Assembly: GCA_964444145.1 (NCBI GenBank)
Contig: CAYUFU010000010.1
Coordinates: forward strand, 1-59,202
Direction of reading: 5' to 3'
Origin: an uncultured Chitinophagales bacterium
Lineage (GTDB): Bacteria; Bacteroidota; Ignavibacteria; UBA10030; UBA6906
DNA: 59,202 nt
Shown here: in pieces, positions 2,553 to 56,030 of the stretch
How the letters are laid out: each line of letters starts with the position of its first letter
Position numbering within the stretch: position 1 is the first letter of the stretch
Made by a program: the position numbers and the translations under genes
Notes under the pieces: generated by a model
What the model was told of the DNA's origin: nothing
Seen by the model: only the letters and a program-made list of their open reading frames with translations
Database searches by the model: none

Positions 2553-2597
2553 GGCTTAGGAACTTTTCGCCTTCATCCGAAATGCCCCGTCCATCAA

Positions 2598-2706
2598 GAG
2601 CTTGTGTGAAAGCGACCTCAACATGTAGAGCGATTCTCCAGAATCGCTCATTTTGCAAGCCAGAGCGACATTCGAGTGTCGCTCTACATGATTCTCACAC
2701 AGGCTC
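2598..2706 (+). mobile_element. MITE-like repeat family A, copy 1 (109 bp)
   Basis: TIRs GAGCTTGTGTGA / TCACACAGGCTC, flanked by TCAA...TCAA, two internal GTAG hairpins; about 95% identical to the reverse complement of 10620-10728. Confidence 0.8.
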
Positions 2707-2724
2707 TCAAATGCACCGGCGACG

Positions 2725-2959: not shown

Positions 2960-3065
2960 TTTTTTGGGGGGCTTCGGCACTTATGCGTCGTGGTGAGGTT
3001 CGTCCGAGCCGCATCTCGCGGACTACATCGTTAACACAACACCCGCCATCCCCGCACGCGCCGCC
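2960..3065 (-). repeat. Repeat family B, rearranged/degenerate copy immediately after the ABC operon stop
   Basis: Minus strand has GGCGGCGCGTGCGGGG, AACGATGTAGTCCG, CTCACCACGA and GAAGCCCCCCAAAA blocks. Confidence 0.45.
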
Positions 3066-3066
3066 A

Positions 3067-4329
3067 TCACTCATACCTCAACGCCTCGATGGGGTCGAGC
3101 GTCGAAGCCTTCCACGCAGGATAGACGCCGAAGACGAGGCCGACAACGGAGCAGACCGCAAGGCCGATCACAGCCCAATCCCACGGCACAACGACGGAAG
3201 TTCCGAGCCACATGCCGATGATAACGTTCCCCGCTATGATGCCGAGCAGTACACCGAGAATGCCCCCAATCATACAAAGAATGACCGCCTCTGTCAGGAA
3301 TTGGGAAAGGACATCGCGCTTCTTTGCGCCGATGGCTTTGCGAATGCCGATTTCACGCGTCCGCTCCGTGACCGACACGAGCATGATATTCATGATGCCG
3401 ACGCCTGCAGCAATCAGTGCAATAGATGCAATCACGAGCACCCCAATGCGAAAATTGAGCGTGAAGTCGTTGAACTGTTTGAGCATAGAATCATTGGAAA
3501 AATATCCGAAGTCGTCTTCATCGCCGGGTGCAACGTTACGCGCCGCACGCAAGATCAATCGTGCCTGCTCAACCGCATCCTCAAACACTTCGCGATTCAA
3601 CGCCTTCACCATCACGTGAATATCTTTGTCCTTACCATACTTCTGGAAGAACGTAGTGATCGGCAGAATGACGAGGTTCGCCTGATTGCCGCCGAGCACG
3701 CCGCCCTTCGGGGCAAGCACGCCAATCACTTGATAGATCGAACCATCAATGCGAATCTGCTGATTGATCGGGTTGACTGAAGGTGGAAAGAGTTTTTCCG
3801 CAACGGGAATGCCGAGGACGGCGACCCGCCGTGCCAAGTCCAAATCTTCATTCGTGATGCCGCGTCCGTTTGCAACAACCCAGTCGTTCGTTGTCAAGCC
3901 CTCAGGATTCTCTCCTGCGACGGAAACGTTCGGGTTCGTCTTCTCTCCATTCCACCAAACGATCCTGCCGAACTCCCACGCTTCGATGCCGACCGCTGCG
4001 GCGAGCGTTGCTTTGTCGCGAATCTGCACAGCTTGCTCGTACGTAATATTCTTGCGATTTCGGAATCGCCATCGTTGGCGTCCGCCGCCGCTGGGTCCTC
4101 CGGGAGGAAACTTTTGAAGTTGCACCGTGTTGGCACCGAGTTGCATGATGCCTTCTTCAATGGAGTTGCGCAGCACCTCCATTGCTGTCATAACGGAAAT
4201 GATGGAGAAAATGCCGACGATGATGCCGAGCAGCGTGAGCGAGGAACGCAATTTGTTGGAACGAATCGCGTTCAACGCCATGGCGAGGCTTTCTCTGAAC
4301 ATCGCAAGATCGAGCAGCGCTCTACTCAT
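3067..4329 (-). CDS. MacB-family ABC transporter permease
   Basis: MacB periplasmic core plus FtsX domain; GIMNIMLVSVTERTREIGIRKAIGA; ends LDPIEALRYE; ATG at 4329 overlaps the upstream gene's last codons. Confidence 0.92.
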   Translation of the reverse strand: MSRALLDLAMFRESLAMALNAIRSNKLRSSLTLLGIIVGIFSIISVMTAMEVLRNSIEEGIMQLGANTVQLQKFPPGGPSGGGRQRWRFRNRKNITYEQAVQIRDKATLAAAVGIEAWEFGRIVWWNGEKTNPNVSVAGENPEGLTTNDWVVANGRGITNEDLDLARRVAVLGIPVAEKLFPPSVNPINQQIRIDGSIYQVIGVLAPKGGVLGGNQANLVILPITTFFQKYGKDKDIHVMVKALNREVFEDAVEQARLILRAARNVAPGDEDDFGYFSNDSMLKQFNDFTLNFRIGVLVIASIALIAAGVGIMNIMLVSVTERTREIGIRKAIGAKKRDVLSQFLTEAVILCMIGGILGVLLGIIAGNVIIGMWLGTSVVVPWDWAVIGLAVCSVVGLVFGVYPAWKASTLDPIEALRYE

Positions 4330-10574: not shown

Positions 10575-10619
10575 TCTCTAACTGGTTGCTGAAAAAGAGA
10601 GAATAAGCCACGAGCTTTA

Positions 10620-10728
10620 GAGCCTGTGTGAGAATCATGTAGAGCGACACTCGAGTGTCGCTCTCGCTCGCAAAATGAGCGATTCTGGAGAATCGCTCTA
10701 CATGTTGAGGTCGTTTTCATACAAGCTC
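10620..10728 (-). mobile_element. MITE-like repeat family A, copy 2 (109 bp), inserted in a terminator loop
   Basis: Reverse complement of copy 1 with 5 differences; flanks TTTA/TTCA sit inside ccacgagc...gctcgtgg. Confidence 0.8.
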
Positions 10729-10961
10729 TTCAGCTCGTGGGATCGGAAAAAAAGCTTGGAGTGGTTCTCACCATCGGCTTTGAAGCGATAGAGGGCGAAA
10801 GTCCAGTCTCCTCTTGTTAAGCTTATCAGATTTTCAGCTTCTTGCTAAAAAGTCGCTGAGAGGTTTAGCTTTCGCGTCTCTCTATATCAGTCTCACATGC
10901 AACTTTGCACGCCGGCACTTTCAACTCGGTAGATTCCATCACTCTATGAGGTTTACACACT

Positions 10962-29867: not shown

Positions 29868-30045
29868 AACTTAATCTCTTGTTTCCTATTCTTCCCCCAC
29901 CTACGTCCTGTGCCGATCGTCCAACAGGCTCTCTCGGATTTCAGAGAGGACCTTGCACATCCCGGCGAAGCAGCTTTTCGCACGTTCATCAGGAGAATTC
30001 TATTTGCCTCTATCTCCAGTGAGCGCGACGATCAGATCAGCATCA

Positions 30046-30456
30046 TTAGTTATTCTGCAACATTCCCGTCGAGTCGGCGAAAACGTAGATGCTCATATTG
30101 AGCGGATTCGTATTGTCCGTTCCTTTCTCCTTGCCAATGCCACGAATCACGACGCTTGAGGAAGTTCCCGCAGTTTGGACGGAATATGTACCGTTTGCGT
30201 TCGATGACTTTGAGGTCAGCTTTGCCAGACCCGCCGCATCTGCCGTCAAACCGACGAAGGAGTTTCCGCCGCCGCTCAACGCCGTTGGACGGCGATAGTA
30301 CTGCTGGGCGCGTGATGCAAGGTTCACGAGATCGTTCGTCACCGCATCGCGGTTCGCCGACACTGCGTTATCCTGAAACATCGTGATACCGACCGCTACT
30401 GCGATGCCGACCACGATAACGCCGAGGATGATGAGAAGCAATTGCTGTTGACCCAT
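30046..30456 (-). CDS. Non-canonical type IV pilin-like protein (tandem copy 2)
   Basis: MGQQQLLLIILGVIVVGIAVAVGITMFQD...QQYY; only 3 aa differ from 30553-30963. Confidence 0.8.
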   Translation of the reverse strand: MGQQQLLLIILGVIVVGIAVAVGITMFQDNAVSANRDAVTNDLVNLASRAQQYYRRPTALSGGGNSFVGLTADAAGLAKLTSKSSNANGTYSVQTAGTSSSVVIRGIGKEKGTDNTNPLNMSIYVFADSTGMLQNN

Positions 30457-30543: not shown

Positions 30544-30552
30544 CGAAACGAA

Positions 30553-30963
30553 TTAGTTGTTCTGGAGAACACCGGTTGAATCGGCAAAGACGTACATGCT
30601 CATGTTGATCGGGTTCGTATTGTCCGTTCCTTTCTCCTTGCCAATGCCACGAATCACGACGCTCGAGGAAGTTCCCGCAGTTTGGACGGAATATGTACCG
30701 TTTGCGTTCGATGACTTTGAGGTCAGCTTTGCCAGACCCGCCGCATCTGCCGTCAAACCGACGAAGGAGTTTCCGCCGCCGCTCAACGCCGTTGGACGGC
30801 GATAGTACTGCTGGGCGCGTGATGCAAGGTTCACGAGATCGTTCGTCACCGCATCGCGGTTCGCCGACACTGCGTTATCCTGAAACATCGTGATACCGAC
30901 CGCTACTGCGATGCCGACCACGATAACGCCGAGGATGATGAGGAGAAGTTGTTGTTGACCCAT
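30553..30963 (-). CDS. Non-canonical type IV pilin-like protein (tandem copy 1, probable major pilin)
   Basis: Same sequence features as copy 2; first in the cluster, with an A/C-rich leader and sigma54-like site upstream. Confidence 0.8.
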   Translation of the reverse strand: MGQQQLLLIILGVIVVGIAVAVGITMFQDNAVSANRDAVTNDLVNLASRAQQYYRRPTALSGGGNSFVGLTADAAGLAKLTSKSSNANGTYSVQTAGTSSSVVIRGIGKEKGTDNTNPINMSMYVFADSTGVLQNN

Positions 30964-38300: not shown

Positions 38301-39947
38301 GGTGCCGACCAGTTCCTCTTTGGTGTAACCCAGGTTCCGGCCGCCCGCGTCGTTCACAAACTGAATAATACCCTTCTCATTGACACTGAAACACATGAGC
38401 GGGTTTTGGTCGTACAAGGTGTGGAAGCGTTCCTCGCTCAGGCGGAGTTTTTCTGCAGTGCGTTCACGCTCAGTAATGTCAATGACTGTTCCCATCAAGC
38501 ACTGTGTGCCGTCGAGTTCGATCTGGCTGACGTTGAGATCAAGCCATCGGGTCTCGCCTTGTTTGGTAACGATTTTGAGATCGTACCGCCGTGGGACGTC
38601 CTCGCCTCGCAGACGCGCCAGTGCGCGCTGCTTGACCATTTCCCGTTGATCGGGATGGACGCAATCCCAAATCCTTCTCTCCATCAATTCTTGTTTTGTG
38701 TATCCGGTGATCTGTTCCATTGCACGATTGACAAACTTGAAATGATCACCATGATAGAAGAACATTCCGGCGGAGGTGGCATCCATCAACGTACGGAATG
38801 TCTCCTCGTTCTCGCGGAGTATCTCTTCTGCCCGTCGCCGCGCCGTGATGTCAACAGCAGTTGCCATAATCACCGGTTCGCCGTTGACTTCAATGGTATT
38901 CGCCGTGAAATCGGTCCAGCGCGTGTTGCCCCATTTGTCAATGACCTTGAGCTCGTAGCGTGCTGGAACATCCTCACCGCGCATGCGCGCAAGCGCTCGC
39001 TCCTCGACCATAGCGCGATGGTCGGGATGGACTGCTTCCCAAATGTTCATTCGCTCGAAATCGTCTTTCGTGTAGCCGAGGAGTTCAGTCAGCGCCTTGT
39101 TGACGTAGAGAATGCGATTGTCCTTGTAGAAGAATACTGCGGAGGACATCGTGTCTGCCAGCGTGCGAAATAATGCTTCGCTTTTCTTTAGAGCGGCTTC
39201 CGCTTTTCGCTGATCCGTGACGTCCACGCAGGTCAAGAGAATAGCGTTCTCTCCCTCGATCTCGATACCCCGCGCATTGATTTCGACCCAACGAGTGTTT
39301 CCGTTTTTGGTCAAAATGGGAAGTCGAAATCTTCCGAACGCCGATTGATCGCGGAAGCGTTGTTTCGCTCTCTCCCGTATGATCGAGCGGTAGTCCGGGT
39401 GCACAAGATTCCAGCCGTTCATAGCGAGGATTTCTTCTGAGCTGTACCCCGTGATCTCCTCAGTAGCTATGTTGCAGAAGAGAATCTTGTCGTTCGCGTA
39501 ATAGAGAATCGCCGCAGATGTCGTATTTGCTAAGGTACGGTAACGAGCTTCGCTTTCTTTGACTGCATGCTCGGCTTTCAGGCGCTCTGTCACGTCGTTC
39601 ATCATCGAGAAGCGCGCTTTCCTCCCCGCGAACATAATGTCGTGCGACTGCTTTTCTACGAAGAAGATGTCACCATTCTTTGAGCGATGTCTGCAGATGT
39701 GTGGTGTAGGGCCGTTCAGAGCGCGTTCACGCAAGTTCTGATGCAGAAGAGGAATATCCTCCGGTGTGCGAACGTCTTCGAGCGTGAGGCTCAAGAATTC
39801 CTCGTGCGAATAACCGTACTTCCACATTGCGCTCTCATTCACCGCGAGAAATCGCAGCGTCTCCGCATCGTACACCCACATCGGCTGCGGATTGTTCTCA
39901 AACAAAAAACGGTACGCTTGCTCGTTGGGAGCCTCATCGCGGACCAT
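35361..39947 (-). CDS. Cytoplasmic hybrid histidine kinase with 9 PAS/PAC domains, HisKA, HATPase and receiver
   Basis: GRLAGGIAHDFNNLL H-box, NLCVNARDAMP, DTGSGI, FSTKGRDRGTGLGL, LLVEDE...VLTDLGLP; no TM segment. Confidence 0.93.
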   Translation of the reverse strand: MVRDEAPNEQAYRFLFENNPQPMWVYDAETLRFLAVNESAMWKYGYSHEEFLSLTLEDVRTPEDIPLLHQNLRERALNGPTPHICRHRSKNGDIFFVEKQSHDIMFAGRKARFSMMNDVTERLKAEHAVKESEARYRTLANTTSAAILYYANDKILFCNIATEEITGYSSEEILAMNGWNLVHPDYRSIIRERAKQRFRDQSAFGRFRLPILTKNGNTRWVEINARGIEIEGENAILLTCVDVTDQRKAEAALKKSEALFRTLADTMSSAVFFYKDNRILYVNKALTELLGYTKDDFERMNIWEAVHPDHRAMVEERALARMRGEDVPARYELKVIDKWGNTRWTDFTANTIEVNGEPVIMATAVDITARRRAEEILRENEETFRTLMDATSAGMFFYHGDHFKFVNRAMEQITGYTKQELMERRIWDCVHPDQREMVKQRALARLRGEDVPRRYDLKIVTKQGETRWLDLNVSQIELDGTQCLMGTVIDITERERTAEKLRLSEERFHTLYDQNPLMCFSVNEKGIIQFVNDAGGRNLGYTKEELVGTSMFSVFHHDDRETIARNLDMCLHGNGATHSWELRKVHKSGTIIHVSEVAQLMSDPEGKPMVLIVCEDITQRMHLEEQIRISEELKARILDASQTGVLVISRDGRIVQANTEAERFYGLSNKELTNFAVQDFVHRKFWEDGSVCPYEDFPVVKCLKTGTAQGPVTMGIRRLDDSMTWAVFTVVPLLSGGETNGAVVTFLDITARKKMEEELREREAMLRALTETTTAAIFFYQDRRFPYVNRAMEKLTGYSKEELRTMRFTALVHPDHHELVRQRAIARQQGKGVPARYELKIRTKHGEVKWLDVAPSMIEVHGEKVLMGTAVDITERKQFEEELRRSEELTHRILEAVPGGIIEVAQDGRVLQANLDAQRFYGISALEFLKTTVDHLATINLWGDGSDFDAEEFPLLQCLRTGEERPPKTFGVRRPDGGISWGVFTAVPLLDISTGKTNGAVMTFLDITSRKHIEDALRESEERYRKFFEEDLTGDFIASRDGCILACNKAFATMFGFASIEEAMYCNLNSVYGEQQSFSDLMALLAERRRVDYHECIARRRDGKPVFLIQNVIGLFDSSGTLIGAKGYLFDNTAHKQLEQRLQETAKIEGLGRLAGGIAHDFNNLLAIILGYSERLAKSKEGKVVKDAMAIGTAAQRGANLVKQLLTFARKTDVSFEEMNVNAVVDELARLLKETFPRNIELQIALDPTLPLIIGDSNQIHQAVLNLCVNARDAMPSGGTLTLKTEIVAGSGLRTAFPEASASYYAGILVSDTGSGIAEEVRAKIFEPFFSTKGRDRGTGLGLAVVYGIVNAHRGFIDVRSAAGEGSSFELYFPIPHSPIEDRALEVEQQRDLPGGKETVLLVEDEDLLRELVESLLKGKGYTVLTATNGEEAIQTFRENQDTVNLVLTDLGLPKLDGWTACKRIKAMNPHVRIIVASGYLDPEAKQEMVNGGVHEFVHKPYLATELTARVREVLDRDIHSLINQSSS

Positions 39948-40009
39948 TGCGTTGCTTCTCCTTTGTCAAAATGAGATTATGCTCTGTTGAGGTGGGTACA
40001 TCCCCTGTA

Positions 40010-40138
40010 GAGCCTGTGTGAAAAACACTCTAATCATGTAGAGCGATTCTCCGAATCGCTCTTTTCGCCCGCAAGAGCGACACTGTCCGAAGGACTCCTT
40101 TGGAGGAGTGTCGCTCTTCAAGATTTTCACACAAGCTC
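40010..40138 (+). mobile_element. MITE-like repeat family A, copy 3 (129 bp, with 20-bp module in hairpin 2)
   Basis: GAGCCTGTGTGA / TCACACAAGCTC TIRs, perfect TGTA...TGTA flanks. Confidence 0.8.
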
Positions 40139-40312
40139 TGTACGTAACGGTCAACAAAATACCGCACTCGCATTTGATTTTCAACTCCTCTCTTGAAATG
40201 CAAAGCTATTGTTGAGGGTATTCACGTAGAGCATTCACTGCATCAGGGCACCACGGGCACGCAGACAGTACGTCTCATTGCTTTCTCTTTATCCCTGGCG
40301 GCGTGGGCGAGA

Positions 40313-48907: not shown

Positions 48908-49004
48908 GGGGCTGCAGACGGACTACAACGTCAAAACGGTACTCTGCGCCGCTGGTGAGCGGGCTACTTCGTGGTGAGTGCCGACGCACCCCCGCTCATG
49001 CCGC
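48908..49004 (-). repeat. Repeat family B, copy (97 nt) directly after the uraD stop
   Basis: Collinear conserved blocks with 55864-55960 and 2725-2864. Confidence 0.65.
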
Positions 49005-55605: not shown

Positions 55606-55709
55606 GCGCCTGTGTGAAAGCGACTTCATCACGTAGAGCGATTCTCCAGAATCGCTCGTTGCGCGAGCCAGAGACACACTGTCGCTCTCCATGATTCTCA
55701 CACAGGTTC
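55606..55709 (+). mobile_element. MITE-like repeat family A, copy 4 (degenerate, 104 bp)
   Basis: GCGCCTGTGTGA / TCACACAGGTTC, hairpin 1 intact, 5-nt deletion in hairpin 2, flanks not duplicated. Confidence 0.7.
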
Positions 55710-55863
55710 TTTCGCGCGTGTCGAATTTACGAAAGTCGCGACTAAGAAAAACCGTGAGGCACCAACCGTCAATCGCAACGCAGCCTTGCGTGCATGGGAA
55801 GAAGTCGTTAGGCACTGCAGCAAGAGAACCCACCGCATCGCCGATTACACGCGAAGTTTTTTT

Positions 55864-55960
55864 GGGGCTGCAGACAGGCTACATCGTCCCGCCATGTTCC
55901 TGCGCCGCGGGAAACATTCTGCTTCGTGGATAGTCCAAGCGCCTCCCCCGCACATGCCGC
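55864..55960 (-). repeat. Repeat family B, copy (97 nt) downstream of EF-G2
   Basis: Collinear conserved blocks with 48908-49004. Confidence 0.65.
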
Positions 55961-56030
55961 GTGTGCGCGCCGACTCCCCCGTATCCCATAGACGTCGCGC
56001 TCTACACTCACAAAACAAGGTAGCCTAACC

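Follow-up and report, generated by a model that had tools for sequence, protein, structure and literature searches.

The window, i.e., the whole stretch of 59,202 nt analysed here, carries four copies of a short palindromic element. The analysis drew on the window, on metagenome contigs retrieved by pattern or by protein identity, and on Logan contigs of public runs aligned to the window. All four copies are intergenic and lie between co-directional minus-strand genes, past the stop of one gene and before the start of the next, and their orientation relative to these genes is mixed (3 to 1). The ORF that spans copy 1 has no match in Pfam, and a search of Rfam at gathering thresholds returned tRNA as the sole match. 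The copies range in size from 104 to 129 bp and every one of them is an imperfect palindrome. The left half is composed, in this order, of (A)GAGCYTGTGTGA, a 15-nt spacer, GTAGAGCGATTCTCCAGAATCGCTC (REP-L) and a 13-nt spacer, and the right half of REP-R (read as the reverse complement of GTAGAGCGACACTCCAGTGTCGCTC), a 7-nt spacer and TCACACARGCTC(T). The outermost blocks are terminal inverted repeats (TIRs) of 12-13 bp, with (A)GAGCYTGTGTGA present at both ends of copies 1-3, 5, 6 and 9. The core contains, on each strand, GTAG and a 10-bp stem with a 2-nt loop, and these two REPs are arranged as a head-to-head heterodimer, REP-R being of the REP-L type on the opposite strand with stem bases CA/TG in place of TT/AA (Table 1; the majority letters of REP-R at 2671 and 2673 are taken from metagenome-run contigs).

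Table 1. Positions of the element copies, their parts and their flanks; positions refer to the window, and further copies lie on other contigs of the same population
Feature	Positions	Strand	Details
Left 4-bp direct repeat of copy 1	2594-2597		TCAA, identical to 2707-2710
Copy 1, 109 bp	2598-2706	+	TIR-L 2598-2609, TIR-R 2695-2706
REP-L of copy 1	2625-2649	+	GTAG-AGCGATTCTCCAGAATCGCTC, 10-bp stem, CC loop (GTAGAGCGATTCTCCAGAATCGCTC)
REP-R of copy 1	2663-2687	-	GTAG-AGCGACA(C/T)TCGA(G/A)TGTCGCTC; family consensus GTAGAGCGACACTCCAGTGTCGCTC
Right 4-bp direct repeat of copy 1	2707-2710		TCAA
Copy 2, 109 bp	10620-10728	-	repeats 10729-10732 (TGAA) and 10616-10619 (TAAA), element orientation
Host hairpin split by copy 2	10608-10740	-	arms CCACGAGC (10740-10733) and GCTCGTGG (10615-10608)
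Copy 3, 129 bp	40010-40138	+	TGTA repeats at 40006-40009 and 40139-40142
Copy 4, decayed	55606-55709	+	TIRs mutated (GCGCC.. / ..GGTTC), REP-R deletion, flanks TGCA/TTTC
Further copy L173			flanks GGTA/GGCA
Further copy L179			flanks GCAA/TCAA
Further copy L172			flanks TGAC/TGAC if 2 left terminal bases lost, otherwise no match
Three further copies			one TIR decayed or missing in each

These parts stand out from the background of the window. The TIR sequence AGAGCCTGTGTGA, searched with up to 2 mismatches, matches the window 10 times against 1.0 expected, and 8 of the 10 matches are the ends of the four copies. An nhmmer profile built from the four detects no fifth copy in the window. The motif GTAGAGCGA has 6 matches against 0.24 expected, all 6 within element copies. 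A repeat search of the window also detects copies 1 and 2 as the arms of a long inverted repeat (2596-2710 and 10616-10730, 115 nt, 95% complementarity). As single-stranded DNA, copies 1-3 fold far below shuffled sequence (z = -6.3, -4.7 and -8.7, respectively; -28.9 kcal/mol for copy 1), and the fold of the decayed copy 4 is weak (z = -2.2). The REP-R loop of copy 3 contains a nested hairpin insert of 22 nt, GTCCGAAGGACTCCTTTGGAGG, at 40085-40106. The preliminary description of this DNA had placed four copies at the coordinates of Table 1, all of which are confirmed by direct reading and alignment. Its count of 5 differences between copies 1 and 2 agrees with their 95% identity over 109 nt, and the TIRs, the TNNA-type flanks (TCAA/TCAA, TTTA/TTCA on the + strand for copy 2, and TGTA/TGTA) and the two internal GTAG hairpins on opposite strands that it listed are all present. 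About 280 bp from copy 4, the minus-strand sequence TTTTGTGAGTGTAGAGCGCGACGTC at 55990-56012 resembles a decayed half element, with an apparent TIR remnant and the start of a GTAG REP.

The abundance of the element was estimated in two metagenome runs that hold the organism, X1 and X2, in which 98-99% of the sampled window words are found. Words from unique flanks reach a depth of 16 in X1 and of ~100 in X2, and the element reaches 460-690 and 3000-4170, respectively, equivalent to ~30-45 copies by contig depth, a figure to be read as an estimate because depth summed over contigs does not strictly equal the number of copies. Since the ratio of element to unique depth is alike (~30-43) at a six-fold different abundance of the organism, the copies belong to this organism, in line with the earlier expectation of many copies genome-wide. 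Relatives in the other runs are likewise many-copied. The loose contig ends further define the borders of the repeat: similarity among copies ends exactly at A2597/G2598 and T2707 in copy 1 and at 10619 and 10729 in copy 2, so that the borders fall exactly at AGAGC and GCTCT and coincide with the TIRs. Within the window, the TIR is placed at element ends only.

Six further copies from the same population were recovered through a protein search with the translations of the two open frames of the consensus (five spurious ORFs), their contigs all coming from one JGI sample series, and identity among copies ranges from 78 to 95%. No additional full copy lies in the 10 kb past the right end of the window, where a degenerate REP singlet, GTAGAGCGGTTCTCCGGATCGCTC, is all that was found; it lacks TIRs and lies directly upstream of a gene start ~7 kb past the window (L164, 2902-2944, minus strand). 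The proteins that flank the copies have their nearest named relatives in Ignavibacteriota/Bacteroidota MAGs, including an 81%-identical ortholog in MAG GCA_031394795.1 (labelled Ignavibacteriota), and metagenomes from freshwater and hot springs contain the sequence of the window again. The TIR + REP-R pattern has no match among viral contigs.

The flanks of the element behave as a duplication of the target. In a permutation test on the nine scorable copies, the 4-bp flanks match those of their own pair at 21 of 36 positions against a shuffled mean of 15.5 (p = 0.007), which bears out the duplications proposed in the preliminary description. Among the five intact copies the matches rise to 17 of 20 (4/4, 3/4, 4/4, 3/4 and 3/4), and none of the 44 derangements exceeds 14. 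Copy 4 shows no direct repeat. The idea that the flanks merely extend the inverted repeat was rejected, given that the central dinucleotides of copies 1 and 3 (CA/CA and GT/GT) match directly and not as complements. An IS608-like origin of the flanks was also rejected: it predicts one fixed left tetranucleotide, but the left flanks vary and match their own right flanks. The pair GGTA/GGCA of L173 indicates that the flanking T and A are bases of the target and not of the element. The duplicated targets lie in intergenic DNA and follow a loose consensus, T/G-N-N-A, for which the loose contig ends suggest a weak C-TNNA-G context.

Two insertion sites retain traces of their previous state. Copy 2 splits a hairpin of the host DNA: once the copy and one of its repeats are taken out, the two arms pair again over 8 bp around a 4-nt loop, and a T-rich tract comes next. 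Copy 3 is missing from a ~91%-identical relative (runs X7 and X8), in whose contig 40008 is followed, after 17 other letters, by 40159; the left break is the edge of copy 3, and the net difference of -133 bp corresponds exactly to the element plus one repeat (129 + 4 bp), an empty site in a close relative. Copy 3 is also absent from an 87%-identical relative (L162) and from an 81% relative (L163), and no presence/absence polymorphism of this copy was seen within the population. The remaining sites differ in their history. That of copy 1 is occupied in the relatives of X6 and X8. At copy 4, the left half alone remains in X7 and X8 (55646 joined to 55714), which indicates an old copy that decays differently in two lineages. 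The region of copy 2 is uninformative in this respect because in the X7/X8 relatives 15 nt stand in place of all 281 bp of 10579-10859; the same replacement suggests that this spacer, between a gene for a GFO-type oxidoreductase and cca, has gathered several inserts. A further segment of the spacer, at 10742-10820, is found at 2-7x depth. Taken together, the excess of flank matches, the split hairpin loop and the empty site of 129 + 4 bp establish the family as a real mobile element that duplicates 4 bp of its target, on a small sample of 5-6 intact flank pairs.

The core of the element also leads a life of its own. A search with the REP 25-mer, allowing two stem variants, retrieved 46 metagenome stretches from many projects, the majority being plain head-to-head doublets that have neither outer arms nor duplications. 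Although the search pattern also admitted non-complementary stem combinations, all of the 50 distinct REPs keep complementary stem bases (TT/AA in 43, CT/AG in 4 and CA/TG in 3). The genome-contig pattern CATGTAGAGCGAYWYTC, with 14 plain bases, yielded L042 as the sole informative locus among the matches listed: this contig of a related Ignavibacteriota MAG has CAACATGTAGAGCGATTCTCC-GAATCGCTC, followed by a spacer and by a REP that ends in CTACAAG, with no TIRs, and the homology of its doublet to the window core extends to the spacer and the CAACAT leader. In addition, similarity ends at GTAG and at CTACAA in depth-matched contigs of X1. The TIR-less doublet of L042, these contig ends and the REP singlet past the window indicate that this genome probably harbours REPs without TIRs alongside the TIR-bearing composite.

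TIR-less REP doublets homologous to this core occur in a related MAG and in many metagenomes, which upholds the hybrid anatomy put forward in the preliminary description, MITE-like ends joined to a REP doublet. For the DDE transposase to which that description ascribed the movement, no counterpart was found in the window or in the fetched loci. A different arrangement is observed in six orthologous metagenome loci (L123, L127, L133, L147, L159 and L160), where a plain REP homodimer is placed between GTTTCTCT and AGAGAAAC; it lies inside the loop region of another hairpin and resembles the hairpin-loop site of copy 2.

The blocks of the element have diverged to different degrees. Under neutral decay from one master, all blocks would be expected to decay alike. 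Across ten copies, REP-L is 97.6% identical to the consensus (6 mismatches in 250 cells), and the values of the other blocks are 75% for TIR-L, 89% for TIR-R, 92% for REP-R and 77-87% for the spacers. Judged from these alignments, the excess conservation of REP-L would reflect either selection or homogenisation in place or a role of REP-L as a cis-element for propagation. If many copies act as sources, a conservation of REP-L above that of the TIRs points to REP-L as the cis-element for spread. The pattern also suggests that a sequence-specific partner of REP-L, a RAYT or a host protein, is still present in the cell, and this putative partner may contribute to the persistence of the element.

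A sister family of the same design was detected in metagenome Ga0247727. Its TIRs, GAGGCTGTCTAA...TTAGACAGCCTC, are related to those of the window and enclose the same REP-L/REP-R heterodimer, and no recognisable duplication was found in its 8-10 copies at any offset tried. A 40-nt hairpin is often nested in its REP-R loop (e.g., L126, 1226-1373), and, to judge from this hairpin and the insert of copy 3, nested insertions seem to concentrate in the REP-R loop. The location of copy 2 within a hairpin loop and the nested inserts of REP-R loops show that insertions favour loops of this kind here. The insert of copy 3 has GTCC.AAGGACTCCTTT in common with a second repeat of the window, family B (compare 2760-2776).

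The search for the mobilising enzyme gave negative results. Neither the window nor ~150 kb of contigs of the same population yielded a transposase gene, no IS with matching ends occurs in the window or in the fetched loci, and no RAYT motif (an ORF with Y..NPV/HUH) was detected in any fetched locus. Fuzzy TIR pairs 300-3500 bp apart were also inspected in all loci as the ends of a candidate IS and amounted to chance pairs only, L109 being checked and rejected. The GCCTGAAGGC cluster of L018 was discarded as a RAYT-linked repeat as well, since it is an unrelated planctomycete repeat around phoU.

IS5-type elements have ends that start with GA/GAG, produce duplications of 4 bp (or 2-4 bp) and encode a DDE transposase. 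The GA/GAG-type ends and the 4-bp repeat of the present element presumably fit the entry of the IS5 family in ISfinder, which we take as a lead only. The reading that we favour, and regard as evenly poised between right and wrong, is that the family represents a non-autonomous transposable element of ~109 bp with ~40 copies per genome, in which a REP-doublet core is enclosed by TIRs. A transposase that binds the TIRs and cuts the target with a 4-bp stagger could, with about an even chance, move the element in trans, and an IS5-type DDE enzyme would be the most likely candidate, given the type of ends and the length of the repeats. The REP doublet would then be cargo: a REPIN would either have inserted into a palindromic MITE, within its loop, or have come to lie between two IS ends, and the composite would have spread after this capture. 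We propose more tentatively, as a possibility somewhat short of even, that a REPIN core caught between IS-type ends spreads via a DDE-type transposase or, in the mirror version, that an enzyme of the RAYT family integrates a REPIN with a 4-bp duplication. Two observations do not fit a simple DDE-MITE model, namely the absence of a duplication in the sister family and the conservation of REP-L above that of the TIRs.

Three other explanations have to be weighed against the favoured one. The notion that the four copies represent chance similarity or an assembly artefact has practically no prospect of being correct and is refuted by motif counts far above the shuffled expectation, by the independent assembly of the same loci in at least six JGI and Logan assemblies and by tens of further copies in the runs. 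It is also distinctly improbable that the family is an immobile fossil of old bursts, kept by selection because it serves the host, for instance as a terminator, as a hairpin that stabilises mRNA or as a site for protein binding. The placement of all four window copies between co-directional genes, after a stop and before the next start, would suit such a function, as would the conservation of REP-L in place; the identity of 78-95% among copies means that most of them are old, copies 1 and 4 are common to relatives, and presence/absence polymorphism within the population was not seen. However, the orientation relative to the genes is mixed, and the absence of copy 3 at ~91% identity, together with the 95% identity of copies 1 and 2, indicates that activity persisted past the split of the lineages. 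Moreover, a retained host function is compatible with an origin by transposition rather than an alternative to it.

The main rival, on balance unlikely, takes the element for a composite REPIN and a RAYT-type HUH tyrosine transposase for its mover, an enzyme that would recognise the GTAG hairpins on single-stranded DNA. The outer repeats would then be an extension of the REPIN stem or the carriers of C↓T cleavage sites, and the 4-bp repeats would be due to a preference for certain targets or to some aspect of REPIN integration that has yet to be characterised. It has been established that GTAG plus a palindrome defines REPs and that GTAG guides RAYTs to cut at a C↓T step close to the REP (PMC8266576), and the present REPs, with GTAG and a perfect 10-bp palindrome, have the form of RAYT substrates; a C↓T step also coincides precisely with the right border (GCTC↓T) and, read on the opposite strand, with the left one. 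The same explanation is favoured by REP-L, by far the best-conserved block, whose 25-mer is identical across many metagenomes with only compensatory stem changes, by the occurrence of this REP in doublets that lack TIRs, in a relative and probably in the host genome as well, by a sister family without duplication and by the precedent of REP dimers within outer palindromes (PMC3733652). On the other hand, known HUH Y1 transposition, as carried out by enzymes of the IS200/IS605 type, neither uses TIRs nor leaves target duplications (PMC2817692), an IS608-like scheme entails one fixed tetranucleotide whereas the observed flanks differ between copies and match within them, and a RAYT motif is missing from every fetched locus. 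The junctions of REPIN insertions have not been characterised (PMC3116915).

Judged by its architecture, the closest precedent of the composite is found in the REP dimers in outer palindromes of Di Nocera et al. 2013, and the design is not wholly new. In Anabaena variabilis, GTAG-15 dimers, and in Halothiobacillus neapolitanus, all CGTC-1 dimers, are enclosed by conserved outer palindromes, and these never occur apart from REPs (PMC3733652). As in the present family, these are head-to-head dimers with GTAG outside, placed between conserved inverted arms; they are heterodimers of two stem variants, intergenic and high-copy, and their arms are not found without REPs. The present family differs in that it belongs to another phylum (Ignavibacteriota), has other sequences and short terminal arms of 12-13 bp, and comes with a documented 4-bp duplication, an empty site and a hairpin-loop insertion. 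Duplications and mobility of such composites were outside the analysis of the 2013 study (PMC3733652), and we found no description of target duplications for them in the literature.

The REPINs of Pseudomonas fluorescens SBW25 (PMC3116915) share with the present element two inverted REPs separated by a short spacer, which form one long or two small hairpins, as well as an extragenic location, tens to hundreds of copies per genome and compensatory stem changes. They have not been described with separate TIRs or target duplications, and the present family has both. The TIR-less doublets and the sister family likewise show no duplication, and no cognate RAYT flanked by GTAGAGCGATTCTCC REPs was found in the fetched loci. 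In turn, DDE-derived MITEs (Nezha/ISNpu3, Correia, RUP and IS5-family derivatives) are alike in TIRs, flanking direct repeats, non-coding content, a size near 110 bp, a stable fold-back and empty/filled sites between relatives. Unlike in those MITEs, the interior of the present element is a REP doublet with an independent life and not a deleted transposase gene, and it is this interior, not the TIRs, that is best conserved. Palindrome-associated elements derived from IS200/IS605 resemble it in their subterminal hairpins and are linked to single-strand HUH Y1 enzymes, but they have no TIRs, make no duplications and carry both hairpins in the same orientation on one strand (PMC2817692). In the present family, by contrast, the hairpins are inverted and a duplication is made.

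REPs/REPINs and MITEs are two large classes of short bacterial repeats, taught as products of HUH and DDE enzymes, respectively. With its target duplication, its empty site, its hairpin-loop insertion and a core that lives independently, the family described here is a concrete case in which both classes are physically joined. If the REPIN is indeed cargo of a DDE enzyme, REP hairpins could spread through a genome independently of a RAYT, and either this possibility or integration by a RAYT would blur the accepted division between REP/RAYT and MITE/DDE systems. It could also account for the REP dimers inside palindromes of cyanobacteria and Halothiobacillus. The family offers a testable system for the insertion of REP doublets and for the outer palindromes reported around REP dimers in 2013, with a modest practical value, the host being an uncultured Ignavibacteriota lineage of freshwater and hot springs.

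Other repeats of the window deserve a brief record. Family B occupies 2742-2875, 55857-55960 and also 48908-49004, the first two at 35-150 bp from copies 1 and 4, and its depth in X1 and X2 is ~30x that of unique sequence. At other loci, the right end of an element of the copy 1 type directly abuts a family B module starting at 2820 (joints 2703/2707 to 2820). Within the N-terminal part of the gene for a 1528-aa PAS histidine kinase, positions 39838-39905 are 8-10x over-deep in X1 (110-152 vs 14), which corresponds either to a repeated coding module or to another embedded repeat. Finally, two tandem 136-aa genes without Pfam matches (30045-30344 and 30552-30851) are 95% identical over 300 nt, an identity that points to a recent tandem duplication beside a type II/IV secretion-like gene cluster.
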